NCBI GenBank assembly: GCA_022705945.1
Contig: JAKJDL010000005.1
Location: 15,825 to 79,824, forward strand
Direction of reading: 5' to 3'
Length of the DNA: 64,000 nt
Source of the DNA: Candidatus Omnitrophota bacterium
GTDB taxonomy: Bacteria; Omnitrophota; Omnitrophia; Omnitrophales; Aquincolibacteriaceae
The stretch's first letter is position 1, and each line of letters begins with the position of its first letter. This document shows, one piece after another, positions 7,718 through 61,483 of this stretch. The translations under genes were made by a program, and so were the position numbers. The notes under the pieces are model-generated. The model saw nothing but the letters and a program-made list of their open reading frames with translations, made no database searches and was not told where the DNA came from.

Positions 7718-7923
7718 GCCGCTTGCCGGGTTCTATAACACATCAGTTTTTTTAAACTCGCCCAATTTCTTCAAATTTAAAATTTTCTGTTTTTCGGATT
7801 GTTTTCCCGGATTCCTCAATCTGGTGGCGTCTCTTTCCCGGCACGGTTCAAAACTATAAAGCTTTAGAAAGTCCGGTCGTTACATAAGTGTGATCTTATA
7901 CTGATACGAAGGAGACTCCGCCC

Positions 7924-9024
7924 TTGCGAGTTATCGCGATAACGAATCAAAAAGGGGGATGTGGTAAAACCACTACGAGCATTAATTTCTCCGCATGTCT
8001 GCATTTTTTGCAGAAGAGAGTTTTGCTGGTAGACCTTGACCCGCAGGGGCATTCGACTTGCGGCCTCGGGATCAAGACTCCCAAAGGGACCCCGACAATT
8101 TATGAGTTGTTGAGTCCGATCCAGGCCGTCCCACCGTCCATGACGCAGGTCATAAGATCCCTGTATCCCGACTTCGATCTGCTCCCGTCGAATGCTGCCT
8201 TAAATGCTCTCGAAGAAGAATGTAATTTCATGCCGAACAATCAGTTGCTCCTGAGAGAGCTACTGGCAAGGATCAAGGCACAGCATGCGCGGTATGATTT
8301 TGTTGTGCTGGATTGTCCGCCCAATCTCGGGATTTTGACTTGGAACGCTCTGAATGCGGCAGATGAGATTATTATTCCCGTTGAGCCATCTTTCTTTTCC
8401 CTGCACGGACTCGGGAAAATATCTGAAACGATCCAGGTGGTCAACCGGTCACGTTCGGTCCCCATTGAAGTTCATGCGTTGCTTACCATTTTCAACTCAC
8501 TGACCAGTTTCTCGCAAGAAGTTCACGATGAGGTCCGGGCTCATTTCAAAACGCAGCTTTTCCGGACCATCATCCATGAAAATGTAAGCTTGCGCGAAGC
8601 TGCAGCGGCGGGGCAAAGCATCGTTCAGTATGCTCCCGGATCGTCCGCATTTCAGGATTATCTGAATCTGGCGGTCGAATATCTTGAACGTGATTGGGAT
8701 CGGAAGCTTCCGTCGCAGGAGCTTGGGTGGCATAAAGTTTTTCAGAATCATTTTGCCCCCCGTTCAATGCCGGACGGTATTCTGTTTCAGTTCAGCAACA
8801 AGACCGCCGCAACGGTTGAAATAGCCGGGGATTTTAACCACTGGGTCCCGGAACCTTTGGTGCGGCGGAGCGATGACGGGCTTTGGCAGAAGATCATCCG
8901 TGTTGATATGAAAACCTTCCGTTATAAATTTATCGTGGACGGAGAGTGGCAGGTGGATCCGAGCCATCCGCTTCAAAAAGAAAACGCTTACGGCGGGCTG
9001 GATTCTTACGTGGAGCTGTCGTGA
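7924..9024 (+). CDS. ParA/MinD-family ATPase fused to a C-terminal AMPK-beta/CBM48-like glycogen-binding-type domain
   Basis: Deviant Walker A 'NQKGGCGKTT' and ParA fold through about aa 250. The C-terminus 'TVEIAGDFNHWVPEPLVRRSDDGLWQKIIRVDMKTFRYKFIVDGEWQVDPSHP' matches the AMPK1_CBM/CBM48 pattern. Confidence 0.75.
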   Translation: MRVIAITNQKGGCGKTTTSINFSACLHFLQKRVLLVDLDPQGHSTCGLGIKTPKGTPTIYELLSPIQAVPPSMTQVIRSLYPDFDLLPSNAALNALEEECNFMPNNQLLLRELLARIKAQHARYDFVVLDCPPNLGILTWNALNAADEIIIPVEPSFFSLHGLGKISETIQVVNRSRSVPIEVHALLTIFNSLTSFSQEVHDEVRAHFKTQLFRTIIHENVSLREAAAAGQSIVQYAPGSSAFQDYLNLAVEYLERDWDRKLPSQELGWHKVFQNHFAPRSMPDGILFQFSNKTAATVEIAGDFNHWVPEPLVRRSDDGLWQKIIRVDMKTFRYKFIVDGEWQVDPSHPLQKENAYGGLDSYVELS

Positions 9025-9833
9025 CGGGGGGAGCGAAAAAACTTATCCGGGGACTCAAGGATGTCTCCGCGCTCTTTGAATCCCCACAGCAGCCGGTGGT
9101 CAGAAAACTTTCGGACATTCAAATCCTCGGTGTGTCGAGCCCGGATGAGGATGATGATTCTTTGTTGCTTAATACCTATTTTGCTTCCCGAATGGCATCG
9201 GAATCAAAACCTTGTTCCTTGGTTTCACTTTTATCCCGATCTGCGGCCTCCTGTTCATGGCGCGGGGGAATGCAAAAAATAGAACCCTTCGGCCGGAATA
9301 TTAAAAGACATACTTTTTTCTGGGACGAGTTCCGGGAGGTGGTTGAGGCGGGAACGGGGCAGCCGTGGGTTTCCTGTGTTAGCCGGAGTATTTTTATGGA
9401 TTTCCAGTACCAGCATCTGGTCCATTATCCTCGCCTCCTGGAGATTTTGGACAAATGGATTCTTTTTTTGAAGCCCTCGGCGGAGTCGCTGACGGGAGGC
9501 TATAAAATGATTAAGGCTGGCTTGGCCCTGAATCCCCACCTGGAATGCTTTGTCCTGTTTCAAACCAAGGCGGATCCGCCGGCCGACAGCACGATCTTTG
9601 AAAAGTTTGCTGCGCTCGCTTCAAAATATTTAAAAATCCATTTGGGCTGGCTTGGGTGGCTCAATTTGAGTAACAGGGACCGTTTTTTTGAAGCGGAGTT
9701 AAATGTCGATCAGCTCCATTTTTGTCCGGCTCAAACGAGGTCGTCCCCGGAGCAGCTGGCTTTGGCTCATTGGATTGCCCGCGCGGAAGGTACAGGTGAA
9801 TTTTCGAGTTCGGAACGAAAGGTGTTTTCATGA
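9021..9833 (+). CDS. ParA-like paralog with degenerate P-loop (putative pseudo-ATPase); hypothetical
   Basis: GTG at 9021 overlaps the upstream stop. 'IQILGVSSPDEDDDSLLLNTYFA' aligns to the ParA 'VIAVASGKGGVGKTTTAANLA' with PDEDDDS in place of KGGVGKT. The remainder has no recognisable motif. Start uncertain (ORF open from 8946). Confidence 0.4.
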   Translation: MTGGAKKLIRGLKDVSALFESPQQPVVRKLSDIQILGVSSPDEDDDSLLLNTYFASRMASESKPCSLVSLLSRSAASCSWRGGMQKIEPFGRNIKRHTFFWDEFREVVEAGTGQPWVSCVSRSIFMDFQYQHLVHYPRLLEILDKWILFLKPSAESLTGGYKMIKAGLALNPHLECFVLFQTKADPPADSTIFEKFAALASKYLKIHLGWLGWLNLSNRDRFFEAELNVDQLHFCPAQTRSSPEQLALAHWIARAEGTGEFSSSERKVFS

Positions 9834-10366
9834 TTCTCGCGCGAGAACCAATGTCCCAGTGTAAGGTTTTTGATGCGGTAAGGACAACAGTGCAGGGTTT
9901 GCATCCCGGGCAGGAGTTTGACAGGGATGCGGCGAGTTATCCTCTTCTTTTCAAGAGTAATGATGAAAAAATCTGGGTGAGAGTCTTTTATCAGCCCATG
10001 CCGGATTATGATATCCGGGAGCTCAAGTACGAGATTGAGAAGTTAAAAAAAATGATAGCGAAAGATTCCCGGTTATATTTTTTCTATCCGAAGCTCGATG
10101 TCAACTTTATGCTGGCTCTCCGTGCAGCATATCACAATCTTGCTTTTTTTGAGTACGGCGGTATTTCCGAGATCGGAAAGGGCAAAGACGGTATCCGGGT
10201 TTGCAGGTGGGTGTCGGCATCTGAAATACCTCATAATGCTTCAATCGAAATTCGACTGCCTGCGGCGATAAAAACCAATCCCGGAGTTTTCCTCAGTTAC
10301 TCCCGGTTGTCTCAAGATGAAGTTACCGGACTGAACGATATTAGCCTGGAACTTGCAAGGTCGTAG
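9830..10366 (+). CDS. Hypothetical protein (third gene of ParA-like operon)
   Basis: 178-aa ORF with an overlapping start and no recognisable motif. Confidence 0.4.
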   Translation: MILAREPMSQCKVFDAVRTTVQGLHPGQEFDRDAASYPLLFKSNDEKIWVRVFYQPMPDYDIRELKYEIEKLKKMIAKDSRLYFFYPKLDVNFMLALRAAYHNLAFFEYGGISEIGKGKDGIRVCRWVSASEIPHNASIEIRLPAAIKTNPGVFLSYSRLSQDEVTGLNDISLELARS

Positions 10367-10425
10367 TTCCGGTCACAGATTTCTTCCTTGAAGGGGATTC
10401 GTATCTCTCTTATAATCACCGACCT

Positions 10426-11142
10426 ATGACCAATCCCGTAATTCAGAACCTTGAGAGCTTGAAAAGAGCGCAATCCCTTGATAGTGAGATCCATCAGACG
10501 CATGTGCTCCAGGGGGAGATTCCTGAAACCCGCGCCAGGTTGAATCAGGAACTTGAGCACAAGAAAACACGCCTGACTGATCTGGAAAAGACATGTAAAG
10601 AGCTTCAGCTGAAATTAAAAGAAAAGGAGTTGGAGCTGTCCCAGAAGGAAGGTCAGGTTAAGAAGCTTGACGGCCAGCTTTCCCAGGTTAAAACCAATAA
10701 GGAATATAGTGCGCTTCAGCAGGAGATTGCGTCTTTGAAGGCGGATAATTCGTTGCTTGAGGAAGAAATCATTAAAAAGATGGATGAGGTCGATGCCATC
10801 AAAGAAGAAGTGCTGAAAGAGAAAGAGCGGTTTGCCGAGGTTTCTAAATCTTATCAATCCCGGGATCAAGACCTCTCGATTCAGGAAAAAAATCTCCAAA
10901 ACCGTCTTCAGGAAATTATTAAGCAACGTGAAGAAATTGTCGCCCGGCTGCCGCCCGAAATAGGTGACCTTTATAACAGGATCGCCATGAAAAAAGAAGG
11001 TTTTGCCTTGGCCCCTGTCAATGGGGATGTTTGTAGCGCCTGCCAGATGCAACTTCGTCCCCAGGTTGTGAATGAACTGCAGTTAGGGGAGCAGATTATC
11101 ACTTGCGAAAACTGCTCCCGCATTCTTTTCTACGACGTGTGA
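10426..11142 (+). CDS. COG1579-type coiled-coil zinc-ribbon protein
   Basis: Long coiled-coil region followed by C4 zinc ribbon 'CSACQMQLRP...CENCSRILF'. TATAAT at 10405-10410 lies only 15 nt upstream of the ATG (possible leaderless transcript). Confidence 0.65.
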   Translation: MTNPVIQNLESLKRAQSLDSEIHQTHVLQGEIPETRARLNQELEHKKTRLTDLEKTCKELQLKLKEKELELSQKEGQVKKLDGQLSQVKTNKEYSALQQEIASLKADNSLLEEEIIKKMDEVDAIKEEVLKEKERFAEVSKSYQSRDQDLSIQEKNLQNRLQEIIKQREEIVARLPPEIGDLYNRIAMKKEGFALAPVNGDVCSACQMQLRPQVVNELQLGEQIITCENCSRILFYDV

Positions 11143-11296
11143 TCTTTTAGCCCCACCCCAGCTTTTCCCCTCTGTTGTCGGAGTTAGCTTACCCAAGCGT
11201 CAAGCTGAAACCCGATAGCTATTTCAATAGGCCCCTCAGGCGGTTTTTTAAAAATTGGTCCATTTCCCAAAATAATATCTGATCCCAAAAATAATA

Positions 11297-11367
11297 TTGA
11301 CACCCTATTAAGGGAGGACTATACTTGCGCCGATAATAAAGTGGGTGAAAGTGGGGGAAAGTGGTAA
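11297..11367 (+). promoter_or_regulatory. mra promoter (TTGACA-17-TATACT) followed by three MraZ-box direct repeats
   Basis: TTGACA at 11297-11302, 17-nt spacer, TATACT at 11320-11325. AAAGTGGGTG, AAAGTGGGGG and AAAGTGGTAA at 11338-11367 form three GTGG(G) repeats with 10-bp periodicity, the classic MraZ operator architecture. Confidence 0.6.
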
Positions 11368-11388
11368 GCGGGAAGGCAAACCAAAACA

Positions 11389-11839: not shown

Positions 11840-12178
11840 ATGGTTTATCAAGCCAAGGTGCGATCAAGAGTCGAAGTGTTGCGGTTTGACGGTGACCTGA
11901 GTGTTCCGAGTATGATCAAGATGAAGGGACGCATGAAGCGCTTGCTGAACCGGAACCATAAAAGGCTTTTGCTGGACTTGAGTGAAACAAAGCGTGTGGA
12001 GTTGGCGGGTGTCGGTCTTTTGGTAGATCGTCTGCGCAAGGTTCGTGAACAAAAAGGCGATATCAAGCTTTGTAATCTCCGACCGGAAGTGGAAAGGACT
12101 TTCCGTTTGATAGGAGTGAACGGATTGATGGAGTCCTATCCCACTCAAGAAGAAGCGATCCAGAGTTTTGCATCATAA
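11840..12178 (+). CDS. STAS-domain protein (anti-sigma-factor antagonist-like)
   Basis: STAS/SpoIIAA-like pattern 'VLRFDGDLSV...KRLLLDLSETKRVELAGVGLLVDRL...LCNLRPEVERTFRLIGV'. Inserted between mraZ and rsmH. Confidence 0.6.
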   Translation: MVYQAKVRSRVEVLRFDGDLSVPSMIKMKGRMKRLLNRNHKRLLLDLSETKRVELAGVGLLVDRLRKVREQKGDIKLCNLRPEVERTFRLIGVNGLMESYPTQEEAIQSFAS

Positions 12179-13468: not shown

Positions 13469-15211
13469 ATGCGTGCGCAGTTCTCCAACAAGCGCTTTTG
13501 GTTCCTTTATACAACCTTATTTATCCTGTTCGGTCTTGTCATCTACCAGGTCATCCAGCTGACCTATTTTCATCAGTCCTCTCTTCTTGAGCTTGCCCAT
13601 CGGCAACATTACATTACCATCGACGTCCCGCCGGTTCGCGGATCTGTCACGGACCGGATCGGCAGGGAATTTGTCACAAATCTGAAGGTTCCTTCAATCT
13701 ATGCCATTCCCCGGATCATGAGCGCCGGGGAGAAAACAAGGTTTGCGGGTGATCTCGCAAAAATATTAAAACTTGATAAAACTTTCGTTTTGCGGCGTCT
13801 TGAGCGCGATAAAGCTTTTGTCTGGATTAAAAGACGTGTAAGTTTTGAAGAAGCTGAGGAGGTAAAAAAAATCGGCAATCCCGCTATCGGAATCACCGAA
13901 GAATATAAACGCTTCTATCCGCAAGGCACGACTCTCGCCAATGTTCTGGGGTTCTCAAATGTTGATAACCAGGGCCTTGAGGGAATCGAAATGGTGATGG
14001 ATGCTTATCTTCATGGCAAACCCGGCAAGCGGGTGACGAAGCGTGATGCCATGGGTCGCGAGATCAGGGCATTCGAGATCAAAACACTGCCCGCCGTGGA
14101 TGGGGATACCGTGATGCTGACGATAGATCAGCATATCCAGTATTTAACTGAAAAAGCGATGGACGCGGCCATGAAGCAATGGAAACCGCAATCGGCCTGG
14201 GCGATTGTTATGGATCCCAAAACGGGCGAGATAATTGCGATGGTCAATCGCCCTACTTTTGATCCCAATCAGTATGATAAATCAGTGACAGATTCAAGAA
14301 GGAACCGTGTGATCACGGATATGTATGAGCCCGGGTCTGTTTTCAAGATTGTGGCGGCAAGTGCGGCCTTGAATGAGGGGGTGGTGACCCCCGAAACCAC
14401 CTTTTTCTGCGAGAACGGAAAATGGAACTACGGGGTTAAATCCCTTCGGGATGTCCGATCCTACGGCACGTTGACCATGGAGCAGATCATTGTCAAATCG
14501 AGCAATATCGGAACGGTCAAAATTGCCTTAAAGCTTCATCGGGACAAATTTCAGGAATACATACGTAATTTTGGTTTCGGGTCCCTGACGGGGATCGATT
14601 TGAAAGGAGAGGCGCCGGGTTATACTCGCCCCCCGTCCCAATGGTCAAAAACCTCCCCCTACAACATTCCCATGGGACAGGAAGTGATGGTGACAGCCAT
14701 CCAGATGGCGACCGCGATGTCGGTGATTGCCAATGGGGGTTACCTGATCCGGCCTTATATTGTCTCCAAAATACAAGATCCTGCGGGCGTGACAATCAAG
14801 GAGAATGTTCCTGAAATCAGAAAGGTTGTGATTAAACCGGAGACAGCTGCGCTGATGCGAAAAATATTAACGAAGGTAGTGGAGGAAGGGACGGGCACCA
14901 AAGCCAAGATACCGGGTATCTCGGCCGGCGGGAAGACGGGAACCGCTCAAAAGGTGCTCCCGGGAGGAAAGGGATATTCTCATAGCGCTTATATATCATC
15001 TTTTATCGGTTTTGCACCGAGTGATAACCCGAGATATGTCATGTGTGTGGTGTTGGACGAGGCACGCCCCATGTATTACGGCGGAACAGTCGCTGCGCCG
15101 GTGTTTAAAGAGGTCATGGAAGCAGCCTTTCTGACGGAAGGGATCCGCCCCTCCAAAAAGACCGAAGCGCCCAAACCTCCGGAATCCACCGATCTTTCGA
15201 TGACCGATTAG
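13469..15211 (+). CDS. ftsI: Penicillin-binding protein 2/3-type transpeptidase (FtsI)
   Basis: N-terminal TM helix and PBP dimerisation domain. Transpeptidase motifs SVFK (SXXK), SSN and KTGT. Confidence 0.9.
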   Translation: MRAQFSNKRFWFLYTTLFILFGLVIYQVIQLTYFHQSSLLELAHRQHYITIDVPPVRGSVTDRIGREFVTNLKVPSIYAIPRIMSAGEKTRFAGDLAKILKLDKTFVLRRLERDKAFVWIKRRVSFEEAEEVKKIGNPAIGITEEYKRFYPQGTTLANVLGFSNVDNQGLEGIEMVMDAYLHGKPGKRVTKRDAMGREIRAFEIKTLPAVDGDTVMLTIDQHIQYLTEKAMDAAMKQWKPQSAWAIVMDPKTGEIIAMVNRPTFDPNQYDKSVTDSRRNRVITDMYEPGSVFKIVAASAALNEGVVTPETTFFCENGKWNYGVKSLRDVRSYGTLTMEQIIVKSSNIGTVKIALKLHRDKFQEYIRNFGFGSLTGIDLKGEAPGYTRPPSQWSKTSPYNIPMGQEVMVTAIQMATAMSVIANGGYLIRPYIVSKIQDPAGVTIKENVPEIRKVVIKPETAALMRKILTKVVEEGTGTKAKIPGISAGGKTGTAQKVLPGGKGYSHSAYISSFIGFAPSDNPRYVMCVVLDEARPMYYGGTVAAPVFKEVMEAAFLTEGIRPSKKTEAPKPPESTDLSMTD

Positions 15212-15250
15212 CTCACATCCGGGGATATTTCTTGTTTTTGTTTGCATTCG

Positions 15251-15279
15251 TTGAATCCCTCCCGGCAGGATGCTATAAT
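15251..15279 (+). promoter_or_regulatory. Promoter for tRNA-Pro (TTGAAT-17-TATAAT, with TGc extended -10)
   Basis: TTGAAT at 15251-15256, 17-nt spacer, gaTGcTATAAT at 15269-15279, about 100 nt upstream of the tRNA. Confidence 0.55.
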
Positions 15280-15378
15280 GCGCTCCCTTAATTTAAGAGA
15301 TGCTGAGATTCAGGAAGGACAGCCGATACTTCGCCATCATCCCGAAAATTTTGGCGGTTCTTTTAGTGGAAATTAGAT

Positions 15379-15727
<349 letters not shown>

Positions 15728-15930
15728 TTTCAGATTCAAGCACACAAAGCTCTAACCCTCGATCTACGGTTGTTGCTATAATTTCTGAATCCATAAGCCC
15801 TCCCGCTGATTAGTTTCATCGTGTTGTGAAATCCTTCGGTATCCCGTGGATTTTGTGAAGTGCCGCATTCTGACGATCTCTTGATCGAAGGATTCCGGGA
15901 TCCATCCCCGTGGGTTAAGAACTGCGAAAG

Positions 15931-15966
15931 GGGCTCCGGTCCCCAAAATGTCCGGAGCCTTTTTAT
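15931..15966 (+). terminator. Rho-independent terminator (GGCTCCGG-loop-CCGGAGCC-TTTTTAT)
   Basis: Perfect 8-bp GC-rich stem with a 12-nt loop, followed by TTTTTAT. First strong terminator downstream of the tRNA-Pro/repeat array. Confidence 0.65.
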
Positions 15967-16021
15967 GGTCCAAAATCGGTTAAAATATCGAAATTGTTGC
16001 GGCCAGGTTTTGATTGTGTCT

Positions 16022-16049
16022 TTGTGAGCCTGGGCGGATGTGCTATAAT
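16022..16049 (+). promoter_or_regulatory. Promoter upstream of rsfS (TTGTGA-16-TATAAT with TGc extended -10)
   Basis: 'tTTGTGAgcctgggcggatgTGcTATAATc'. -10 at 16044-16049. Confidence 0.45.
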
Positions 16050-16084
16050 CCCACAACTTTTTCATAGAAAGGTGAGCCAATACT

Positions 16085-16417
16085 TTGCAACCCAAACGAA
16101 TGGCTGCTTTGATTCGCGCGTTCGCGGATGATAAAAAAGCCGAAGACATCGTTGTTCTCGATATCTCGAAACTTTCAAGTGTTGCCCATTATTTCATCAT
16201 CACCCACGGCAACAACGACCGTCATGTCCGCGCGGTTGCCGATCATGTGATGGATGAAATGAAGAAAAGAAAGATGCCGGTTCTTCACGTCGAGGGGATG
16301 AAGGACGGCAAATGGGTGCTCTTGGACTTCGGGGCTGTGATCCTCCATGTCTTCTACAAGGAAACCCGCGAATTTTACGCCCTCGAGCGCCTGTGGGGCG
16401 AAGCGAAATGTATTTAA
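16085..16417 (+). CDS. rsfS: Ribosomal silencing factor RsfS (Iojap family)
   Basis: 'AEDIVVLDISKLSSVAHYFIITHGNNDRHVRAVADHV...WVLLDFGAVILHVF' is the Iojap/RsfS signature. TTG start with RBS AAAGGTGAG (alternative ATG at 16100). Confidence 0.85.
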   Translation: MQPKRMAALIRAFADDKKAEDIVVLDISKLSSVAHYFIITHGNNDRHVRAVADHVMDEMKKRKMPVLHVEGMKDGKWVLLDFGAVILHVFYKETREFYALERLWGEAKCI

Positions 16418-16490
16418 CCGGGGGGCTTGTATCTCGCGACTTCTCCCTCGTTTTGACGAGTTTCCGGTCCCTGGTTCCGGTTGTTAAAAC

Positions 16491-20423: not shown

Positions 20424-23297
20424 ATGGAGACCGCCATGACGAATTTGCCGAGCGTGGAACTTTATAAAGCGGGACAAGGGCCGTGGCTTGATACGATCAG
20501 CCGGCGACTGCTTCGTTCCGGCCAGCTCAAGAAATGGATTGAGGAGGACGGCCTGCTCGGGGTGACCTCCAACCCTTCGATTTTCCAGCAGGCGATCACT
20601 CAAGGGGACGGTTATGAGAAGGATATCCGGCGCATGCTTAAAAAAGGAGCCGCAACCCTTGAGATCTATGATGCCCTGACGGTTGCCGATATCCGGGAAA
20701 CCTGCGATCTTTTTCTTCCTGTTTTTGAAAGAACAAAAGGGGAACATGGTTTTGTGAGCCTCGAAGTTCTGCCGTGCCTTGCGGCGAATCCCGACGCGAC
20801 GATCCGCGAAGCGAAGAGGCTTTTCGCGGAGATCGGGCGTCCGAATCTTATGATCAAGGTTCCCGCGACCCCGGAAGGCGTCATTGCGGTCGAGTCGCTT
20901 ATTGCCGAAGGGATCAATGTCAATGTGACTCTGATTTTTTCACAGGCGAATTACCGTGCGGTTGCGGAAGCCTATCTTGCGGGACTTTCAAGGCTCGCCG
21001 CCCGGGGCGGCAAGCTCGCCGAGGTTCACTCGGTCGCGAGCGTTTTTGTGAGCCGGATCGACACGGATATTGATAAACAGCTTGATTTGAAGCTCGCGGA
21101 AGAGCACGACAGTTCACGCAGGGCCGGGCTTCAGGACCTAAAAGGGAAAGCGGCTCTCGCGAACACAAAGCTGATCTACCAGGAATTTAAAAAGATTTTT
21201 AGCACTGCGGCGTTTCTTTCGCTGAAGGAGCGGGGAGCAACGGTTCAAAAGGTCCTTTGGGGTTCGACAAGCACGAAGAATCCGGCCTATCCTGATCTGC
21301 TCTATGTCGAGAATCTTGTCGGGCGTGACAGCATAAATACGCTCCCGCAGGCTACCTGGGAAGCGTTGCTTGATCACGGGCAGATCCGCCCCGCGGCGGT
21401 CGAGGAAAATATAGAGGCTGCCCGGCAGGTTATTGCGGATCTTAAATCGAACGGAATCGACATCCATGCGGTTTGCGAAAGGCTCCAGAGGGAAGGGGTG
21501 AGGGCTTTTGTCCGGGCTTTTGAATCGCTGATGGCAGTCCTTGAAAAAAAGAACATTGGATTGATCCGTTCCGAGGGGGCGGTCAAGACATCCTACGTGC
21601 TTCCCGAAAGGACCCAAAAGGCTGTCCGGAACGCGGTAAAAGACTTTATGAAAAAAGATATACATGGCCGCTGGCTGGCAAAGGATCCGACGATCTGGAC
21701 GAATGATCCGGATCACCATAAAGTAATTCTGAACCGCCTCGGCTGGGTCGAGATCGTGGAAAAGCTTTCCGGACGGCTATATGAGATTGACCTTCTCCGT
21801 GAAAAAATCTTCCGCGAGAAAGTCCGTGATGTCGTGTTGCTTGGGATGGGCGGATCCAGCCTTGCGGCTGAAGTGATGTCGCTTATCCTGAAGAAGCCGC
21901 ACCATAAGACCGTTGGAGCGCCCAGGATGCGGTTCCATTTGCTTGATACGACGGATCCGCTCAGTATCGCGAAAGTTGATCGCGCGGTCAATTATGCCAA
22001 AACAGTGTTCGTGGTGGGGAGTAAATCCGGCTCCACGATCGAAACGCGCTCGCAGTATCAGTATTTTTTCAATGCCGTGAAAAAGTCATTCAGGGGCGAC
22101 GAAGATAAGACCGCCGGCAGGTTCGTGTTTGTGACCGACGAGGGTTCGCCTTTTGCCGAGATGGGAAAGTTGATGAATCTCGCAGGGCTTTTTCTGAACC
22201 CGTCCGACATCGGCGGACGTTATTCGGCCCTCTCGTTCTTCGGATATGTTCCCGCCGCGCTTCTTGGGATTGACATCCGGAAGATCACGAAGGATGCCCA
22301 TATCGCTCTCATGAATATGCGGAAGGAAAAAAACCTTACGAAGAACGAGGGAATCTATCTCGGTATCGTGCTCGGCGTGCTCGCGCTTCAAAGAAAGGAT
22401 AAGCTGACATTCTGGACTTCTCCCTCGCTTTCCTCTTTTGCGGATTGGGCCGAACAGCTGATCGCGGAGAGCACGGGCAAGGAAGGAAAGGGCATTGTGC
22501 CGGTCGTCGGGGAACCGCCGCTTGCTCTTGAACAGTATTCCGAAAACCGCGTTTTCGCGATTCTCCGTCAAAAAGGTGAAGATACGGCTCTTTGGTCCTC
22601 CCGGATCCGGGCACTCAAAGCCAGAGGATTTGCCGTTATTGACTGTGTTTGGGCGGACGGCGTGAACGTTGGCGGGGAATTCCTGAAATGGGAAATTGCT
22701 ACCAGTATTGCGAGCGCGCTTCTCGGGATTAACCCGTTCGATGAACCCAATGTGAAGGAATCGAAGGATATTACAGGCAGGATTCTCAAGGATATGAAAA
22801 AGAAAAAAAAGCTTCCCAGGCCCCAGTTGCTGCTCTCCGCGGGAAGTCCCAGGCTTTCTCCGGCCGAAAGGAAGGTCTTCGATAAGTTCTTCGGGAAACT
22901 GAAACCGGAGGGTTATGTGTCGCTATTGGCCTATATTGACCGGACAGCGGTATCCAGAAAATGTCTCCAGGCCCTTCAGAAAAAAATAGCGGCGAAGATT
23001 CGCGTGCCGGCCCTTTCCGGTTTCGGGCCCCGGTACCTTCATTCCATAGGACAGCTTTACAAGGGCGGACCGAAGAATGGGGCTTTTATAGAATTTTATG
23101 TCCGGGACACGATGGACCTGAAAGTTCCGGGGGAATTTTACGGGTTCAAACAGCTCAAGACCGCTCAGGCAATGGGGGATTATCTGGCGACTTCCAACAA
23201 GGGTTTGCCTGTGCTTGTGGTTGATCTTGGAAAAGATTCTGTCAAAGGCCTCAGGGCTTTTGGCTCGAAGCTCGGTGCGTTCTTTTTATTAAAATGA
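20424..23297 (+). CDS. Bifunctional transaldolase / glucose-6-phosphate isomerase fusion
   Basis: N-terminal roughly 370 aa transaldolase ('GVTSNPSIF', 'MIKVPATPEG'). C-terminal roughly 580 aa phosphoglucose isomerase (SIS domains 'VLLGMGGSSL'). One continuous 957-aa ORF. Confidence 0.85.
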   Translation: METAMTNLPSVELYKAGQGPWLDTISRRLLRSGQLKKWIEEDGLLGVTSNPSIFQQAITQGDGYEKDIRRMLKKGAATLEIYDALTVADIRETCDLFLPVFERTKGEHGFVSLEVLPCLAANPDATIREAKRLFAEIGRPNLMIKVPATPEGVIAVESLIAEGINVNVTLIFSQANYRAVAEAYLAGLSRLAARGGKLAEVHSVASVFVSRIDTDIDKQLDLKLAEEHDSSRRAGLQDLKGKAALANTKLIYQEFKKIFSTAAFLSLKERGATVQKVLWGSTSTKNPAYPDLLYVENLVGRDSINTLPQATWEALLDHGQIRPAAVEENIEAARQVIADLKSNGIDIHAVCERLQREGVRAFVRAFESLMAVLEKKNIGLIRSEGAVKTSYVLPERTQKAVRNAVKDFMKKDIHGRWLAKDPTIWTNDPDHHKVILNRLGWVEIVEKLSGRLYEIDLLREKIFREKVRDVVLLGMGGSSLAAEVMSLILKKPHHKTVGAPRMRFHLLDTTDPLSIAKVDRAVNYAKTVFVVGSKSGSTIETRSQYQYFFNAVKKSFRGDEDKTAGRFVFVTDEGSPFAEMGKLMNLAGLFLNPSDIGGRYSALSFFGYVPAALLGIDIRKITKDAHIALMNMRKEKNLTKNEGIYLGIVLGVLALQRKDKLTFWTSPSLSSFADWAEQLIAESTGKEGKGIVPVVGEPPLALEQYSENRVFAILRQKGEDTALWSSRIRALKARGFAVIDCVWADGVNVGGEFLKWEIATSIASALLGINPFDEPNVKESKDITGRILKDMKKKKKLPRPQLLLSAGSPRLSPAERKVFDKFFGKLKPEGYVSLLAYIDRTAVSRKCLQALQKKIAAKIRVPALSGFGPRYLHSIGQLYKGGPKNGAFIEFYVRDTMDLKVPGEFYGFKQLKTAQAMGDYLATSNKGLPVLVVDLGKDSVKGLRAFGSKLGAFFLLK

Positions 23298-27029: not shown

Positions 27030-30000
27030 ATGAAAAAAATAACCTGTCAAAAAAAAGGAATGGGAATGCGAGTTATTGCATTGACGGTCGCGCTGACTTT
27101 TACGATGTCGGGCGTGGCGATGCCGTCGCCTGCCGGGTCTCCGGTTGCCGCAGACTCCGTTCATCTGCCGTTTTCAATCGCCGATCTGACTATTCCCGCG
27201 GAATACGGCACCGTTCGATTGGGCCCTGAAGCGGATGGCGATCGCGGCAAATCAGGTTCCCCGTCCTCTTCCATTCCCTATTCTTCATCCCGCAGCATTA
27301 TTTTGATCCAGGATGCGCACGCGGTCAATGATGCTCAGGAAAATATCCGAAGGATCATTGATCACCTGCAGTCACGGCAAATGGCGGATCTGGTTTTGCT
27401 CGAAGGAGCGAAAGGAAAGCTCGATCCCGTTCTCTTAAGGACTTATCCCGACGCGCGGAGGCGGACGAAGGTGGCCTCGGAATATCTTGAGCGCGCTGAA
27501 CTTACCGGAGCCGAAGCCGCTGCCGTGCTGAATAATGCAGAAGGTTCTTTCGAGGGATTGGAGGATTGGCCGCTTTATTCCGAGAACTTTTTTGCCTATC
27601 AGGCCGCGCAAGATGAAAAATCGGATATCCATAGAAAACTCGCAGTTTTTCGAACCGAACTTGACCGGAAAAGCAGTTTGAAAATATCAGCCTCCCTCCG
27701 GGAATTCCTTAAGTATTGGAGCGATTTCCGTTCCGAACGTATCTCGCTCATGGATCTGCTTTTTTACCTTCAGAGATTCGCAACGCTTGGTAAAAAGGAT
27801 GCGGGTTATGACGAGCTTTCGAGACTTCTTGATTCTCTCGGTTATGAGAAATCCGGAGCGGGGCAGGCTCTTGAGCCGGCGGTCCGGCGCATTGCGGAAG
27901 AGTTTAAAAGTAAATTCACACGGGGGCTCAATGCCCGGGATCAAACGAATTTTATTATGAATTATCAGAGATTCATGACGGGGCAGATGTCGGCGGGAGA
28001 GATGCTGAGTTACCTCGTCCGGTTCGGTGCCGAGAGGGGGCATCAGCTGAAGATGACTCCGGAGATCAGGAGACTTCTCGGACACAGCCAGACACTCTCG
28101 GAGATCAAAGGGAGCCGTCTTTTCAACGAGCTAAACAGGTTTTTGCCCGAGGCCGCGGAAAGTCTTGTCCGGTCTCATGAGGAGCTCGGAATATTGCGGT
28201 CTTATGAAAAGCTCTTCATCCTTGAAAGCCTTGCTTCCCTCGAGCTTACCCACGAGATGCTTTTGCAGTATCAAAGAGAGCCTGAGGCTTATCTGGGGCT
28301 CACCGGAGATCCGGAGCTTGGGAAAAGTCTTGTTCCCGCGATCGAATTCTATCAGGCGGCTCTGCGCCGCGATTTGTCCTTTTATGAAAAAGTTCGCCGA
28401 ATCCCGGCGGAGGTGCGCACTGTGGTGCTTGTCGCGGGCGGATTCCATACGAACGGTCTTGAACGGCTCCTTCGGGAGAACGGCGAATCCTATGCCGTTA
28501 TCACGCCGAAGATCGCGTCACTCGCGGGCGCCGAGAATTATTTCAAAGTGATGGCGGGCGATCTCTCTTACAAGAAATATCTTAAAACGACCTATTACGA
28601 CGCGCTTATGAACCATGCCGTCCGGAAGCTTACCGAATCACTAAGCGAGCCGGAATTCCGGCAGACGGTCAAGCTTTGGCGTGACAACCTGATCCGCGAT
28701 CTTTCGGCGAAGGGACGTATCACGGACATTGGGAAATACACCCGCTACCTCGATGAACTGAACATTGTCTATGCCGAGCGCTTTGCCGGAGAACTGAAAC
28801 CGCGTTCAAGAGAGGACATTCTTGACTTCGTGAAAGTGCAGCTTGAGAAATTCAAAACGGAGGCGCTGCGGGCCGCAAGGAAACGGTTTGAAGATCAGCT
28901 TGCCGGGGTCGCTCCCGGGCTTCGGCAAATGACTGGCGAAAAAGAGTTCGGCGGAGCGGCCGCTACTGATCGGGCGACCTTTGGAACTCCGCTTGGTCTT
29001 GCTCCCGGGAATGCGGTGTTGAGGGCTGAGGCTCGCGGCGCAAATGTTCCGGAGCCGGTCGTGCCGGCCGCCGTGCCGGGACTCCGGACCCCACGTACCG
29101 GGAGAGAACTCACGATGCTTTCTGCGGTGGATGATTTGATGGCGAAATGGCAAAAAGAGCTGGCAAACGACGAAAAAAACAGGCTTGGACGAGCCGGCTT
29201 GATCCGCAAACGTTTGACGGAACTCGAGCGCCTGAAACGGATCGTGAATGATAAGGAAAAACTTACGGCCTATTTATGTAAATTCGACAGCCCGAGTGAT
29301 CTTCAGGTGCGCGTGCGGGAAGGGGTGATCAGCCGCCCGCTTCCCGCGGACGTTCGTTTTATCTACCTTGATCCTGAAAAATGGGAACATCAGATACTCT
29401 GGGAGCTGACGGGGCATGAGCGATCGGTGCCGGAAGGAATCGCCTGGCCGTTGATATGGCCTGACGGAAGTTCGACGCGTTTTGTTATCGTGAATAATCG
29501 CGAGAAGCCCGCTTTTAGCGAGATCCTCATTATGGCGCATGAACTTTCGCACTGCCGGAGCAATCTCCCGACAGCCGAGATGCCGTATTTTTTCAATCGT
29601 CTGCTGGAAGGTTATCAGCAGCAGAACGAATTTGAGACGCTTGTGGAATGGGCCGAGCTTGACAGTGATTTTGGGCGGTTCGTGAAAAAAGTATTGATCG
29701 GAGAATTGCCGGTGGGTTGGGGTGTTTGGGAGTGGGCGGTCAGGACCTTCAGTCCCGGAACTTCCAAAGAGGTTCGTTACGGGGCACTGCGCGATGTGCT
29801 GCAAAATGTTAACGGTTACAGTGCCGAAGCGGCCATGGCGGACGATGTGGCCCGTCAGTTTTCCGGAGGAGCGGCGCTTGGGAAATTCTTCATCGAAAAA
29901 GATATGTCTGCGATCCGTAACGCGCTTGGGAATGAGCGGGCGCGGCTGCTGGAGAGGCTCTTTGAGGGAGTGAAACAAACAGGACTTCGCGGAACTTCTC

Positions 30001-33000
30001 TTGAATCCGTCACAGGACTGCTGATCGCGATCGCACGCGAGCTTATCTTGATCCCCGATAGGGTCTTCCCGGCCGGACATGTGGTTTCGGACGAAATTCT
30101 GGAGCGCGTCATTTTGCTCCTGAAGGTCAGCGGGGAGGCGGCAAGTTCTTATCCTGCCCGTCCCGTCACGCTTGATGAGGCAAGCCTGAAACTTTTCGAG
30201 AGGATGCTCTTTGAAGGCGAAATACCGTCGCAGGATAAGCAGATCGAAGTTTCAGATCGAATGTCGCAAGCGCTGGTTGCGGCGTCCCGTTCCGAGTCCC
30301 GTGCGGGAGAGGACGGTGTTGTGCCGGCACAGACGCGAGGGATTCAGCCCGGGACTGCCCGCGTGAGAGTATGGCGGAAGATCGCGAATGTGTTTGGGAA
30401 AATTCGCGGCGTCCGCGTGTTCAGCAGCGCGGATCCGGCCGCTATCGTGGAAAGTGTCGCGGCTCACCTTCGCAACTGGAACCCTGAAAGGAGCGGCAAG
30501 GTTCTCTTTGTCGCGCGGATGCAAGGTTCAGTGATTCAATTTGCGCTGGCTCCCGAAAGGCCCCGGTTCGGCATTTTAAAGTTAAACATGGATCACGGGT
30601 CGTTAGCCTTGAGTTTACCCAGAAATGAAGATGATCCTGAAGATCATCTTGAGGCTTGGCGATACGGCTACGCGAGCGGCTTTCTGGACTTCACCGACAA
30701 CACATTCGTAATCGTTCCGGACATGCATCTTAAAAATTTGGCGGCGACTAATACGGAAAAGGCAACGGAACTCGAAAAACTTATGTACGTTGTTAACAAG
30801 ATCGTCAGCGGCTCGCTGAAAAGCGCCGGTAAAAATCCGGAAGAATGGAATCTGCCGGGAGAGTATCCTCTGATACGGAGCGAATTGAGGGGGGCTTTGC
30901 CTGCGGTAAAGCCTTTGATCTACGATAAGGAAAAAGAAGAGGAGTTTTATGAGCTGTGGGGCAATCAATTAAAACAGAGCGGAAATCGCGATGCGGATGC
31001 GCTGATTGAAATTGCCCGGAAGCTTCGCCGGGCGCGTCAGGTTATTCCTTATGAGGAGTTTTCACGCGAGATGCGGGAGGTGGGACCGAAGCTCCGGGAT
31101 GCGCTTGAGGGGCGAGGGCAATACGCCGTGATTTGGGGAGAACCTCATACGTCCCGCCGGTGGGCATGGTTTCACATCAAGGAAGGGCTCCGGGAACCGG
31201 CCGCGACAGTTTATGAGAATCAGATTGCCGAGGCTCGCAGCGTCTCGACTTTTGTGATCGTGGATGACGCGAGTTATAGCGGCACCCAAATCAGGGAAAC
31301 GATTGAGAAAATAGCAAAACATAATTCTCGAGCAAATATTATTGTCGCGGTCCCCTACATGACGAAACGGGCGCATTCGGTGATTCGTTCGAGGAAGGGA
31401 CTGCCCGAGGGTGTTTCGATCACGGTTTTGGATCATAAAAATATGCCGACGCTTTCTGAGCTTCTCACGGAAGAAGAGAATAAGCTGGTTGACATGAAGC
31501 GCAAGCCTCAAGAAGAAGAGGATCGGGCGAGTGCGAACAGGCGTTTTTTGGGAAGGGTGTTCATGGGGGGGGGAAGTGGAAAAGAATATGATATCTTCAA
31601 GTATGCCACGGTTACGCTCTTTGAACATAAAATAGCCGATTCCTGGTCGGTTTATCAACGCATCGCACATTTCTTTGATCCTGTGCGGCCGCCCTACAGG
31701 GACAAAGAAAGCGCCTATTATCAGGAAGAATCAAAACAGCTTGCTGACGGAAATGACGGTTCCGCCCGCAGTTCACCTGCGGCAAAACCTCCGAAAGAGT
31801 TTGGGGATGCTGAAAAACCCCGCTCGGAAATCAGGTCGGGAGGTGATAAGGGAGAAAATCCCCTGGAGGATTCCGTTGCGCCGCCCGTTTTTAAAGAGCC
31901 CACCAGTAGACGCACTCCTCAGTTGGCGCGTACAGAGCTCCGCACAGCCGGGCAACTCGAGCTGTTCGGCCCTGCCGAATTGTTACCGCACGGGACGGCT
32001 CGGGTGCGGGTCGATCCGCAAACGGTCATTGAACTGGCCGCGTCGCAGATTCGCGAAGGGGTTGAGCGAAATATTGTAAAATGGGATCCGGAGGCCGGGG
32101 AATACCGCGTGACCGGCCAGAATGCCCGGGACGGCCTTGCTGCCGTTAGGGCCGCCGCGAACCGGCGGGATTTTTCCGTCGGGGGTCAGGATGTAAGCCG
32201 TGAGGCCCTGATTGCGGGAATCCTGACCGGGAATTACATTTATCGGGAGGACCGCGAAGATATCGCTTCCGGAGGCGGTTCCGTCCGTTATTTCACAGCC
32301 CGTCCGGAATCGCGTAATGTGCGGCGCTCGGAAATGCGGCAAAAAAATATTGCGGAGGCACAGAGGCAGAAACTTCTGGATCAAGCCCTGAAGACTGTGG
32401 TCGATCGGGGATTGATGACGAAGGTTCAGGTTGAGCAGGCGCTGAAAGTTTCCGGGATTAAGTGGGTCGGTAAAAAGGAGGGTATGGAGCGTATCGGTCA
32501 GCTTCGCAAAACGGATCACGGCTATCTTGTCGAATTAAGCATGGAATGGGCCCAATTGCCGTACCAAAAAGAGTTCCGGACCGCAGCAAAAAAGGCCCGT
32601 CTCTCGGAGGCGGAACTCCTGGATCTGTTTGAAAATAAACTCGCTTATTCGTTGACGCGGTGTCTGACACAAGTAAGCGTTGAGGAATTCATTCATGCGT
32701 TCCATTTGCCCAAGATCTTTACCCGTGATGGGTCCCTGCCGTCGCGTACGGTCATTTTCCTGAAGGAAACGAGTTTGTTGCGCTCCAGACCCGAAGATGC
32801 CCAAAAGATCTTCCGGTTCGAGAAAGTGGTGGAACTTCTTCTTGCCCAAAGGGAAGGTTCCCCTCTCCGGGAGCTTGTCGAGCGAGGAAATTTTCACAAG
32901 AAACATGTCCGTTACATCGAAATGTTGCGGGAGATTACCGAAGAAGATTTCTATGGCAAGACCTTCCTGGGGGAACCGCTCTGGCTCGGACGCATTGGAA

Positions 33001-36000
33001 AGTTTCTGGATGACATCAAGGGAATCTACCTCACTTTATCCGAGAAACCCCAGGATTCGAGACCTTCAGGGTTGCCCCGCCGGGGTTTGCGTGACATGGG
33101 CGATTTTCTGGAGGTTTTGAGGATCCAACGTTGGCATCGCAACTTTGTTACCCATTGGCTCCCCGTCGAAAGTAGTCCTCACAAAGACTGGACCGTAAAT
33201 GGCACGGCCGACCTGGCAGGCCGGAAAGTTCCCGTGATTGCAAAAAGAAAATTCTCTGATTACTACAGCGCCGGCAATGTGGGAGCAATTCTTTCATCCC
33301 GTTTGCCGGGGAAGAAGACCTTGTTTCTAATGGAAACCCTCCGGAAGATTCATGGGGAATCTTTCGAGCCGAAGGACATTGAGCGCATTTATGTCCGTGC
33401 GCTTGGAGCGGGGACTCTAAAAGCCGGTTTTTATGTTATGGTCGGCACAAGCCGCGGTATTTTTGATTTTGCCCTCCTCTTGCCGCAATCCGAGGACGAT
33501 GATGATCATGTCCCCATCGGGTTTCTTTTGAAGGGGGAACTGGAGGTGCTGGAAAAATCTGCCCAACGTGATCCCGAATTGGGGATCCGGTCCGGAGCTT
33601 ATTTGCCTCCCAAAGGGACGAATCCGGGCGCATTAAGCGTTTCGTACGGGGGACGGGATCTTGAAAAAATGCTCCAGAACAACGATGAGCAGATCCTTCA
33701 AAGCGCTCGCCTCGCATTCCTTGAAAATGCGATCTCCCGTTACATCCGCAACATGTTCCGAATGGGCGGGTACCACATGGTTTCGGATTTTAAGCCGGCT
33801 AATACCGCGCATCTTGATCTCACCGTGCGCATCATTGATTACGGTATCCACTTCTACAGTGAAAAGATCGCCCAAGTTACGTTCATGATCAATACGCTTG
33901 TCGAGGGGAAGAGCGTTCTAGGTAAGGAATGGAGTTACCCGCCGGAAACAGATGACCGACAATATATTTTTAGCGGTATCTTGAAAACCTTTACGGGCAG
34001 TCATAAGCCCAGCGATGCCGACTATGCGTATTATCTCGGGCAAGGACTGGATTTTTTGCGCCAGATATATTCGGATCCGGATGGGGCGCTTACTCCCGCT
34101 TCAAAAAAAGAGTTGGAGAAATTTTTCCGTAACGTCGGGAAGATCGAAGTGACGGATATGTTTACTCCCTTGGCGACGACAGTTTCGGAAGGGGATTTTG
34201 AGGCGGTTGCCCGGGAGGCTGCGGCCTCAAACGCGAAAGAAAAGAGGCCCATTCGTTTTCCGGATGTCCGGAATCTTTCCCTGAAAGGGCAGGATTTGAG
34301 TTATGCACGCCTGGCACAGCGCTCCGGAGTATCAGTCCCCTCGGATTCGGAGAAAATGCCCGTAGGGGATGTGATCCGTGTCCTGGATTATATTTCACAG
34401 GATTATGCCATTCTTCCGGATGAGATCGTTCTGGACGTGCTTGCCGCTTGGGCTCGCCGCTTTCGGGTTAAGATGCCGGAACTTAAAAGCCGGGATCATT
34501 ACCGTGCCTTGATACGGACTTTGCGGGAATCTGCGGAAGCGGTGTCCGCGTCCGGGCGCACTTCGGTCGAGCGTTCAGTTACAGTTAAAGACGAAGATCG
34601 CGATTTCTATCATGAGTTGAGCTCCTTCCAGATCCAAAAGATCTTCGAACGATTCTCCGGCCAGGATGAGGACAAGATCTCGTCCGCCGAATTAGCCATG
34701 ATGCCCTATAGCCTCGAATTTGTACTGCTGGATGTATTGAAAAGCCGGCAAAAAGAGTTCAATCCGGCCCTTTCTGCCGCCTATAAAGCAGCACTCAAAA
34801 AGCAGCAGGCCATTTCTTTGCTGGTTCCCGACGGGACATCGAGTTCTCCCGATTCCCCAATCGCCTCATCCCGCAAAAAAGCTCGCTCGGAAATGCGAGA
34901 AGAAGATATAGCGGAGGCGCAAAGGGAAATTTCTGATCGCGCGGAGGTAACGGACCGAGCGGCCAACGCGAACGCCGGAGAGTATGATCTTCCAGGTCAG
35001 TACGCGGTCTCGGAGAATTTGAAAATGTTTGTAGCGGGTTTAAAGGAACATTATTCAGGACATCTATCCTCTCTTAAAGCGCTAGATCTCGCAACGGGTA
35101 CGGGATCGGTCGCTTTCGCGATGGCCTCTGCCGGTGTTGGCACGATCACCGCTCTGGACATCAACGAAGGTATGCTTAAGAGGGCCCAAAGGTCGTCGTC
35201 GGCTTCACCCAAAGTAGTGTTTCTTCAGGGCGATATCTTTAATGCGCGACAGGTCCTTGAACGTGCGGGTAGGGATACGATCTTCGACCTCATAACGATC
35301 GGATATACGCTTCACGCCTATAAGCCTGAGGACATTACGGAGCTTCTAGCAACGGCTCGCACGATGCTTTCGGAAGGTGGGCGGCTTGCGATTCTTGGCC
35401 GTGGTTTGGATGAGATCTACAACCGGCGAACGATGAGCGATTACCGGAGAATCCTCCAAAAAGCCGGATTCGATTTGATGACGGTCGAAGGCAGCAATCA
35501 CTTTACTCTTTGGGCATCGAGTCGGAGCGAGGAGCCTATTTCGGGCGAGTTAAAGCTTGGGCGTGAATCTCGGAGGAGAACAAACAAACTGCCGGTTCAC
35601 GCGCGGGCGGAGGTGCGGGCGGAGCGTGCTTCAATTAAAGAGGAGTTGAGCGATTTCAGGAGGCGTTTGAAAGCAATCGGAGATCTTCCCGAGGGAGTCC
35701 TTTATCCGAATTCGGACGCGTCTTACCAGATGGTGCGGAACGGGATCGTTCCGGTGATAACCGCGGGGAGCCGGGTTCTGGAAATCGGAACGGGAAGCGG
35801 TGTCGTGCTTGATCTGCTCGCGGATGCCGGGCGAAATCTCGCCGGACTTCATTTTGTAGGGACGGACAAGAACCCCGCCGCTGTGCGAACTGCCCGGCGG
35901 ATGTTACAGAGGTTCGGCAATGTGGAAATTCGGGAGGGGAGTCTGTTTGATCCCGTCATAGGTGAAAAATTCGACGTGATCTTCTGGAATCCTCCCTGGT

Positions 36001-51010: not shown

Positions 51011-51060
51011 ATCTTGGTTTACAGAGGGCCAAGTAAGGATTGAGTGAAGGAGTTGCTACG

Positions 51061-53120: not shown

Positions 53121-53353
53121 CGATTATGATGGATATTGATACAAAGGAATACTGGCAATCGGAGTTATCAAAAGATTTATACGGCGGGACACCGGGCAAT
53201 TTAGCTGGGACGAAATAATATGAACTACTGGTGGACATCGGGTGCGTTCACGAGAAATATAAGATCAAGCGAGAGGCCGGATGATACTTGTTCTTGAGTG
53301 AACGCCGGACACCGTCCGGCAACAGAAACCATAAGTCATGAAAGAGGTTTTAT

Positions 53354-56175: not shown

Positions 56176-56315
56176 GTCGTGGCTCTTCCGCACAGATTCA
56201 TTTTGATGGCGAGTTTTATTAACGAGGGAGCTTTTGAGGAATCGATTGAACAAAGTCTGACCCCCAATCGCGGGGGTGAAAGGAATACCAGGGGAAATTG
56301 AAAAGAGGAAATGAA

Positions 56316-60379: not shown

Positions 60380-60428
60380 GTGTACCGGGATCTATTCTCA
60401 AAGCCGCAAATTTCAAAAGCAAGATACC

Positions 60429-61482: not shown

Positions 61483-61483
61483 G

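Follow-up and report, generated by a model that had tools for sequence, protein, structure and literature searches.

What would a ParA-type ATPase do with a glycan-binding module at its C-terminus? The question is raised by a three-gene locus of a Candidatus Omnitrophota bacterium (GCA_022705945.1, contig JAKJDL010000005.1), lying in a stretch of 64,000 nt (contig positions 15,825-79,824) that is called the window here and whose numbering is used throughout. Positions 7924-10366 hold three open reading frames (ORFs) on the plus strand, with overlapping stop and start codons: ORF1, a ParA-CBM48 fusion; ORF2, a putative pseudo-ATPase with a MinD/FlhG-like fold; and ORF3, a small accessory protein. 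Bacteria generally rely on ParA/MinD ATPases to position chromosomes and plasmids as well as carboxysomes, chemoreceptor arrays and division sites. The domain identities of the trio can be assigned with great confidence. Its function is proposed tentatively, as a ParA/activator module whose ATPase would bind a cytoplasmic α-glucan (glycogen) and not DNA.

ORF1 (7924..9024, 366 aa) starts at a TTG codon with the N-terminus MRVIAITNQKGGCGKTT, and a Shine-Dalgarno-like AGGAG (7910..7914), read from the sequence, lies 9 nt 5' of this start. Residues 1-258 (7924..8697) make up a Soj-type ParA ATPase domain. The Pfam family AAA_31 matches residues 1-176 (E=1.3e-49), followed by CbiA (3e-15). Among solved structures, the domain is nearest to ParA 8ray (E=2e-50) and to the Soj proteins of T. 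thermophilus (4e-42) and H. pylori (1.6e-33). More than 120 homologues were found at 56-81% identity, all with the same two domains. Conservation was read from an alignment of 150 sequences, composed of the window protein, database homologues and orthologues from related loci. The deviant Walker A motif of ORF1 is NQKGGCGKTT, in which the signature K10, K15 and T16 are invariant (150/150), as are D37 and D39 of Walker A' and D130 of Walker B. Because these catalytic residues do not vary, ORF1 is expected to be an active ATPase with a complete catalytic set. The initial annotation had called the gene a canonical ParA/MinD ATPase from its KGGCGKTT, and the family match, the solved structures and the invariant residues all agree with this.

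The residues by which such ATPases hold DNA present a different picture. In H. pylori Soj (HpSoj), non-specific DNA binding depends on lysines K199, K227, K230 and K247 (PMC11229316). These align to Q198, E219, S222 and G239 of ORF1. The K227-equivalent, position 219, is Glu or Asp in 139 of the 150 family members (93%) and is therefore charge-reversed; at the K230-equivalent, position 222, neither Lys nor Arg is among the seven commonest residues in the family; and the K247-equivalent is mostly Gln, Asp or Glu. The K230-equivalent and position 193 are taken by us to be the counterparts of B. subtilis Soj R218 and R189, which are presumably replaced likewise. The ORF1 family has lost the basic side chains on which Soj relies to bind DNA non-specifically.

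The C-terminal module (residues 284-364, 8773..9015) is an AMPK-beta-type CBM48, as the initial annotation had recognized. Residues 292-364 match Pfam AMPK1_CBM with E=2.2e-10 and 41.0 bits (cut-off 26.8), CBM_48 also scores above threshold at the C-terminus (24.5 bits, cut-off 22.4), and a phmmer comparison with the carbohydrate-binding module (CBM) structures of AMPK beta1 and beta2 gives E=2.4e-7. In AMPK beta1, W100, K126 and W133 are the main glycogen contacts. Counted through the phmmer alignment, these correspond to W307, K335 and W342 of ORF1, which are kept in 150, 149 and 149 of the 150 family members, respectively. The predicted α-glucan-binding site is thus intact. These conserved residues, together with the loss of Soj's DNA-binding residues, strengthen the earlier idea of a tether to glycogen or another polysaccharide; the case for α-glucan as the actual ligand of ORF1 is evenly balanced.

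ORF2 was first called mechanically from position 8946. However, all 23 homologues compared start at the equivalent of the GTG at 9021, with M..KKLxRGLKD, and the true ORF2 is therefore 9021..9833 (270 aa). This GTG overlaps the ORF1 stop codon (GTGA), and the start is the one given in the initial annotation. ORF2 has no Pfam, NCBIfam or PADLOC family match, and 81 relatives are also without a Pfam match. An exhaustive profile search nevertheless recovered 208 cluster representatives at 50% clustering, 151 of them at E<=1e-10. An AlphaFold model built with 23 sequences is confident (pLDDT 81, pTM 0.77). When compared with the PDB by Foldseek, it matches FlhG (E=3e-8), and the top 50 structures are all of the MinD, ParA, NifH or Get3 class. 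By this model, ORF2 is predicted to adopt a MinD/ParA (SIMIBI) fold that is structurally nearest to FlhG/FleN. The family profile searched against the PDB also gives FlhG, as a weak match confined to residues 144-215 (E=0.005).

In the model, strand beta1 (residues 33-39) is followed by a four-residue loop and a helix (44-58), which is the topology of a P-loop without the P-loop itself. ORF2 carries GVSSPDEDDDSLLL at the expected P-loop site, and a degenerate acidic loop, SSPDEDDDS (residues 39-47, 9135..9161), replaces the P-loop. A Walker A motif (GxxxxGK[ST] or KGGxGK[ST]) at the N-terminal position occurs in none of the best 150 family representatives, and ORF2 is thus predicted to be a catalytically and nucleotide-dead pseudo-ATPase. 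The acidic loop is poorly conserved across the wider family, and the exact string PDEDDDS is therefore not a motif. The acidic, dead P-loop described earlier holds as to the missing Walker A but not as to the acidic string.

The same annotation had described ORF2 as a paralogue of the adjacent ParA. Profile comparisons of ORF2 with ORF1 gave hhalign probabilities of 0.15%, 1.4% and 2.3%, none of them significant; the paralogue idea was therefore dropped, and structure was relied upon instead. The ParA/MinD fold stands, while paralogy to ORF1 is not detectable. A permissive hhalign alignment of the two is collinear and sets D42 against the signature Lys, D46 against the Walker A Lys and S47 against Thr16, with the invariant D127 of ORF2 opposite the Walker B Asp of ORF1. 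Neither outcome that was to count against the initial annotation, a C-terminus failing to match CBM48 or E-set folds or an ORF2 without a ParA fold, came about.

The most conserved element of the ORF2 family is found at the N-terminus. In the window protein it is the basic peptide KKLIRGLKDVSALF (residues 6-19, 9036..9077), proposed here as a ParA-activating peptide; the family consensus is [RK][KR]L[KR]RGL[KR]D[ILV]SPLF. Among 130 sequences, R10 is conserved in 126, L12 in 127 and F19 in 125. Residues 6-13 contain four to five Lys or Arg and form the highest-information block of the family, and a variable linker of about 13 residues follows the peptide. The HpParB peptide that binds ParA is MAKNKVLGRG, with conserved Leu7 and Arg9, the latter indispensable (PMC11229316). 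By inspection, L8-x-R10-G11-L12 of ORF2 resembles this core, with only L-x-R-G-L in common. No ParB/Srx CTPase domain and no helix-turn-helix were found in ORF2 by Pfam and NCBIfam scans.

Activators of ParA/MinD ATPases have in common an N-terminal extension of positive charge attached to an interaction domain, and their ATPases are far more conserved than they are (PMC7993993). Sequence comparison indicates that ORF2 fits this rule, with a Lys/Arg-rich N-terminus, an ATPase neighbor and lower conservation: median identities to the window proteins are 73% for ORF1, 44% for ORF2 and 36% for ORF3. FlhG, the structure nearest to ORF2, likewise has an activator motif at its N-terminus, DQAxxLR, for its partner NTPase FlhF (PMC12327844), which adds to the case for ORF2 as an activator. 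The N-terminal motif of ORF2, KKLKRGLKDISPLF, differs from it in sequence. ORF2 is probably the activator of ORF1. The initial annotation had suggested a pseudo-ATPase adaptor of the PomX/PomY kind; the ParB-like basic peptide strengthens the adaptor, but no relation to PomX or PomY is seen in sequence or fold. A loose likeness of 'DISPLF' in the ORF2 peptide to beta-clamp or FtsZ C-terminal peptide motifs was considered too weak.

ORF3 (9830..10366, 178 aa), listed earlier as a third overlapping gene, was confirmed as such, its ATG overlapping the ORF2 stop codon (ATGA). It has no match to known families in Pfam, NCBIfam or PADLOC. Five homologues were found directly, and divergent orthologues were detected 3' of ORF2 in nearly all related loci with a hidden Markov model (HMM). 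The N-terminal domain is weakly modelled as a PD-(D/E)xK restriction-endonuclease-like fold, and conserved catalytic D...(D/E)xK residues were not seen in a nine-sequence alignment. The conserved part of the protein is its C-terminal peptide, (R)L(S/T)xxE(I/V)xxLx(D/E)(L/I)(S/G)LxL, which in the window is FLSYSRLSQDEVTGLNDISLELARS (residues 154-178, 10289..10363). The motif is in frame in the window and in 27 related loci, at or near the C-terminus, 3-7 residues before the stop codon in most and up to 16 in others. In one locus (L034), ORF3 is only 61 aa long and retains the C-terminal peptide with the N-domain absent. Ca. Taenariivivens baikalensis (L035) lacks an ORF3 gene, and the peptide is instead fused to the C-terminus of a 304-aa ORF2, which provides a Rosetta-stone link between ORF2 and ORF3. 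A role for ORF3 as a DNA-binding, centromere-binding analogue is not favored, because no conserved catalytic or basic signature was found (family pI 5.4-9.2) and the domain is dispensable in these two lineages.

Conservation argues that all three ORFs are real genes under selection, given the more than 120 homologues of ORF1, the 208 representatives of ORF2 and the HMM-detected homologues of ORF3 in nearly all related loci. The minus-strand ORFs within 7924-10366 are short (62-102 aa) shadow ORFs. Related loci were collected from five metagenome loci and 36 species-representative genome loci, and all named records among them are Omnitrophota. ParA-CBM48 lies directly upstream of ORF2 in 40 of the 40 loci in which the contig covers the position. 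The same three-gene arrangement, which the initial annotation had proposed looking for in related genomes, is present and collinear across Omnitrophota loci. The distance from the ORF1 stop codon to the ORF2 motif is 12-18 nt in nearly all of them, and translational coupling has thus been kept.

Taken together, these features suggest a mechanism in which ORF1, ORF2 and ORF3 would form one translationally coupled operon for a ParA-type self-organizing (positioning) module. ORF1 would be an active, ATP-dimerizing, Soj-derived ATPase with a CBM48 in place of the nucleoid-binding basic residues; lacking those residues and carrying the CBM48, its ATP dimer would present two glycan modules and hold glycogen. 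The basic, ParB-like N-terminal peptide of ORF2, borne on its variable linker, would dock onto ORF1 and trigger ATP hydrolysis and release, with the nucleotide-dead MinD/FlhG-fold body serving as an interaction or scaffold domain. ORF3 would bind ORF2 via its conserved C-terminal peptide and so add a lineage-variable domain. Through a cycle of ATP-dependent glycan binding and ORF2-triggered release, glycogen granules could then be distributed or partitioned in the cell, or else something that is tethered to granules or placed relative to them. Granule positioning as the output is rather doubtful. More doubtful again is the full joint reading, in which this would be the first ParA-type system to use a polysaccharide, in place of nucleoid or membrane, as its ATP-dependent surface or cargo, ORF2 would represent a new activator class that combines a nucleotide-dead MinD/FlhG fold with a ParB-like peptide, and storage-polymer granules would be actively partitioned. 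As part of that reading, ORF2 might join an ATP-bound ORF1 monomer in a one-site pseudo-heterodimer by means of its acidic pseudo-P-loop, which sets Asp/Glu against both Walker lysines.

Several points weigh against a glycan-binding ParA module. The interactions, the ligand and the cellular output are all matters that we infer. AMPK-type CBMs double as protein-interaction or regulatory modules. Lys or Arg is invariant at position 224 of ORF1, two residues from the lost Arg/Lys, and could retain a contact with DNA or ATP. A profile of the ORF2 N-terminal peptide searched against PDB sequences retrieves no ParB, only chance agmatinase matches (E=7), and the likeness to ParB therefore rests on inspection of a short motif. 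Classic ParA systems divide the labor: the matrix is held by the ATPase and the cargo by its partner. For a ParA that sits on its presumed cargo directly, the ratchet needs a different geometry, and none has been demonstrated. The neighborhood is housekeeping, dcw-proximal and collinear across the phylum, from obgE-proB-proA-nadD-CNNM to ftsI. Adjacent glycogen genes, a further suggestion of the initial annotation, were not found: the 64 kb window and the conserved neighborhood are both devoid of glycogen-metabolism (glg) genes, and the window also contains no parB, ftsZ or minCDE. In favor of the glycan model, by contrast, Omnitrophota metagenome genomes mostly encode glycogen synthesis (PMC8542988); the same paper lists trehalose-only genera, which are glycogen-less.

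The position of the trio next to division genes suggests a different function, that of a division or cell-cycle regulator like MipZ or PomXYZ, with the CBM48 sensing glycogen as an energy reserve, as in AMPK, and not tethering cargo. The gene order in the window is obgE, proB, proA, nadD, two CNNM/CBS genes, the trio, a CdsZ/CT398-like zinc-ribbon gene, mraZ, a STAS gene, rsmH, ftsL and ftsI. The order CNNM-CNNM-ParA_CBM48-ORF2-(ORF3)-CdsZ-mraZ-STAS recurs wherever the contig reaches, and the trio is two genes upstream of mraZ-STAS-rsmH-ftsL-ftsI in every contig-covered locus. Omnitrophota retain an FtsZ-based dcw/division gene set (PMC12283558), and PomXYZ itself consists of a ParA/MinD ATPase and two poorly conserved partners that position division (PMC7993993). 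The nearest structures to ORF2, FlhG and FleN, are spatial and numerical regulators. However, the region from obgE to ftsI is collinear phylum-wide; closeness to dcw genes is therefore weak functional evidence, and the adjacency may reflect inherited gene order only. The CdsZ-like gene and mraZ each have a promoter-like site in front of them (matching at 10/12 and 11/12 positions, respectively), suggesting that the trio is its own transcription unit, separate from the division genes. MipZ and PomZ also require DNA binding, for which ORF1 has lost the residues, and nothing in the trio hints at an FtsZ-interacting element. A division role is thus unlikely.

A less probable explanation is that ORF1 is an ordinary chromosomal Soj/ParA whose ParB is encoded elsewhere, with ORF2 a second regulator competing through its ParB-like peptide and the CBM48 an accessory anchor. 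The ATPase is indeed most similar to chromosomal ParA/Soj (E=2e-50 to 1.6e-33), relatives of ORF1 are annotated by JGI as 'chromosome partitioning protein', and the ORF2 peptide mimics the ParB N-terminus. Against this, no ParB-family gene is present in the window or in the gene tables of four related loci, the rest of the genome not having been searched. ORF1 also falls below the equivalog threshold of NCBIfam ParA_partition (NF041546), with 114 bits against a cut-off of 180, and the DNA-binding residues of HpSoj are replaced, with the central one charge-reversed in 93% of the family. This explanation is considered quite unlikely.

Equally improbable is a CBM48-like domain that acts as a protein-protein module and meets no sugar in vivo, in a system that positions an unrelated protein cargo or complex recognized by ORF2 and ORF3. 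The inter-domain linker (ORF1 residues 259-283, 8698..8772) is highly conserved by the family profile (LERxWxRxLPxxELGW...NHFGPR), which suggests that the CBM may pack against the ATPase and not swing freely; the AMPK beta CBM is established to make regulatory protein contacts as well, and linkage to glycogen genes is missing. However, the three main sugar-contact residues persist in 149-150 of 150 sequences whose overall identity ranges over 53-81%, and without selection for a ligand this is hard to account for. In the most divergent ORF1 orthologue (L041 4193-5509, 438 aa), moreover, an insertion of about 70 aa of low-complexity sequence rich in Asn, Gly, Ser and Pro stands in place of the linker, as a long tether. 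A defense-system reading of the trio was rejected because neither ORF2 nor ORF3 has a match in Pfam, NCBIfam or PADLOC and the synteny is housekeeping.

How, then, does the proposed glycan-binding module compare with known systems? Like chromosomal ParABS (Soj/Spo0J), it has an ATPase that is a close sequence relative, in which the deviant Walker A, A' and B motifs are all complete, and its ORF2 L-x-R-G-L peptide resembles the ParA-activating peptide at the ParB N-terminus. Unlike ParABS, the trio locus is without ParB or parS, ORF1 lacks the DNA-binding basic residues and has a C-terminal CBM48, and the partner is a predicted MinD-fold pseudo-ATPase instead of a ParB/HTH CTPase. McdAB of the carboxysome, PpfA/TlpT and ParC/ParP likewise pair a conserved ParA-type ATPase with a fast-evolving partner bearing a basic N-terminus, and do so for a non-DNA cytoplasmic body. 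In those pairs, the ATPase binds the nucleoid and the partner binds the cargo, whereas ORF1 itself carries the putative cargo or matrix module, its ligand would be a polysaccharide and ORF2 has a degenerate ATPase fold. PomXYZ of Myxococcus xanthus is similar in having one conserved ParA/MinD ATPase and two divergent partners, and it is linked to cell division; it differs in that ORF2 and ORF3 have no sequence or fold relation to PomX and PomY, PomZ binds DNA, and the Pom proteins are without a CBM.

ORF2 is also set apart from other members of its fold. FlhG, the partner of FlhF, is an active ATPase with a Walker A motif, DQAxxLR and a membrane-targeting helix; ORF2 is without the P-loop, has another N-terminal motif and, compared with FlhG/FleN, occurs in no flagellar context. 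The atypical ATPase domain of TadZ/CpaE and BcsQ still bind nucleotide, while ORF2 is without the whole glycine-rich loop and both lysines. The ORF1 module belongs to the same domain family as the AMPK beta CBM and the CBM48 of glycogen enzymes and shares the key sugar-contact residues (W100, K126, W133), but it is fused to a ParA ATPase and not to a kinase scaffold or glycoside hydrolase.

A ParA ATPase with an activator acting through a basic N-terminal peptide is already known. What appears new, judged from sequence, is a glycan-binding ATPase with eroded DNA-binding residues and a pseudo-ATPase activator as variants of this known logic. In the literature, no paper was found that links ParA-type ATPases with CBM48, PF16561 or glycogen. 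In a tblastn search of PLSDB plasmids, matches to the ParA part did not extend into the CBM; the CBM part matched two Pseudoalteromonas chromids, and no fusion was found. Database names of the trio proteins are limited to 'AAA family ATPase', 'chromosome partitioning protein' and 'hypothetical protein'. To our knowledge, all characterized surface-patterned ParA/MinD members use DNA or membrane. A strongly conserved, phylum-wide ParA with a glycogen-binding module and without its DNA-binding residues would, if the proposal is true, provide a third kind of surface or cargo and make active partitioning of bacterial glycogen granules a directly testable question. ORF2 defines a pseudo-ATPase family that had no annotation and that comprises at least 208 clusters at 50% identity, and it would extend to a further scaffold the rule that ParA activators carry a basic N-terminal peptide on any scaffold. 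A role is thereby proposed for three conserved hypothetical or mis-annotated genes of Omnitrophota, an uncultured and often ultra-small lineage.

Additional observations were made in the genes downstream of the trio. The CT398/CdsZ-type gene (10426-11142), which encodes a coiled coil and a zinc ribbon, follows the trio in every contig-covered locus in which it was detected. The promoter-like sequence in front of it, TTGAAG-17-TATAAT (within 10388-10425), ends only 9 nt before its start codon, which may mean that the mRNA is leaderless or nearly so. In one Omnitrophota metagenome genome, a 404-aa ORF judged by sequence to be transposase-like (L025 7434-8648, minus strand) lies between ORF3 and the CdsZ-like gene; an interruption of the ORF3/CdsZ junction is thus tolerated, which agrees with separate transcription units. 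The 246-nt gap before mraZ (11143-11388) contains a near-consensus promoter at 11297-11325 (11/12) and has no Rfam match, so that no RNase P or other RNA is located there.

A STAS-domain gene (11840-12178), anti-sigma-antagonist-like, is situated between mraZ and rsmH within the dcw operon. It is also present in L001, L003-L005 and most of the other loci, and is an unusual, conserved insertion across Omnitrophota in an otherwise canonical mraZ-rsmH-ftsL-ftsI block. In the region 13469-16490, the dcw block ends at ftsI and is followed by a tRNA (15379-15452), argS, miaA and hflX instead of mur, ftsW, ftsA and ftsZ; the division cluster is therefore fragmented here.

Further from the trio, a 957-aa ORF at 20424-23297 is a fusion of transaldolase (TAL_FSA) and phosphoglucose isomerase (PGI). 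In a giant ORF of 3384 aa (27030-37184), nothing is recognizable except two methyltransferase domains at about residues 2680-3030 and, at 1393-1473, a weak match to PRTase-CE; giant genes are reportedly described in Omnitrophota in a bioRxiv preprint (10.1101/2023.11.21.568195). The region 51040-63272 has the appearance of a defense or mobile island. It contains an AbiEi-like antitoxin with a nucleotidyltransferase (an AbiE-type pair), the type I restriction-modification genes hsdM, hsdS and hsdR with a DUF3800 gene in between, a DUF1016 gene, and a gene for a protein that combines DUF4062, HATPase_c_4 and Fic-like_C domains.

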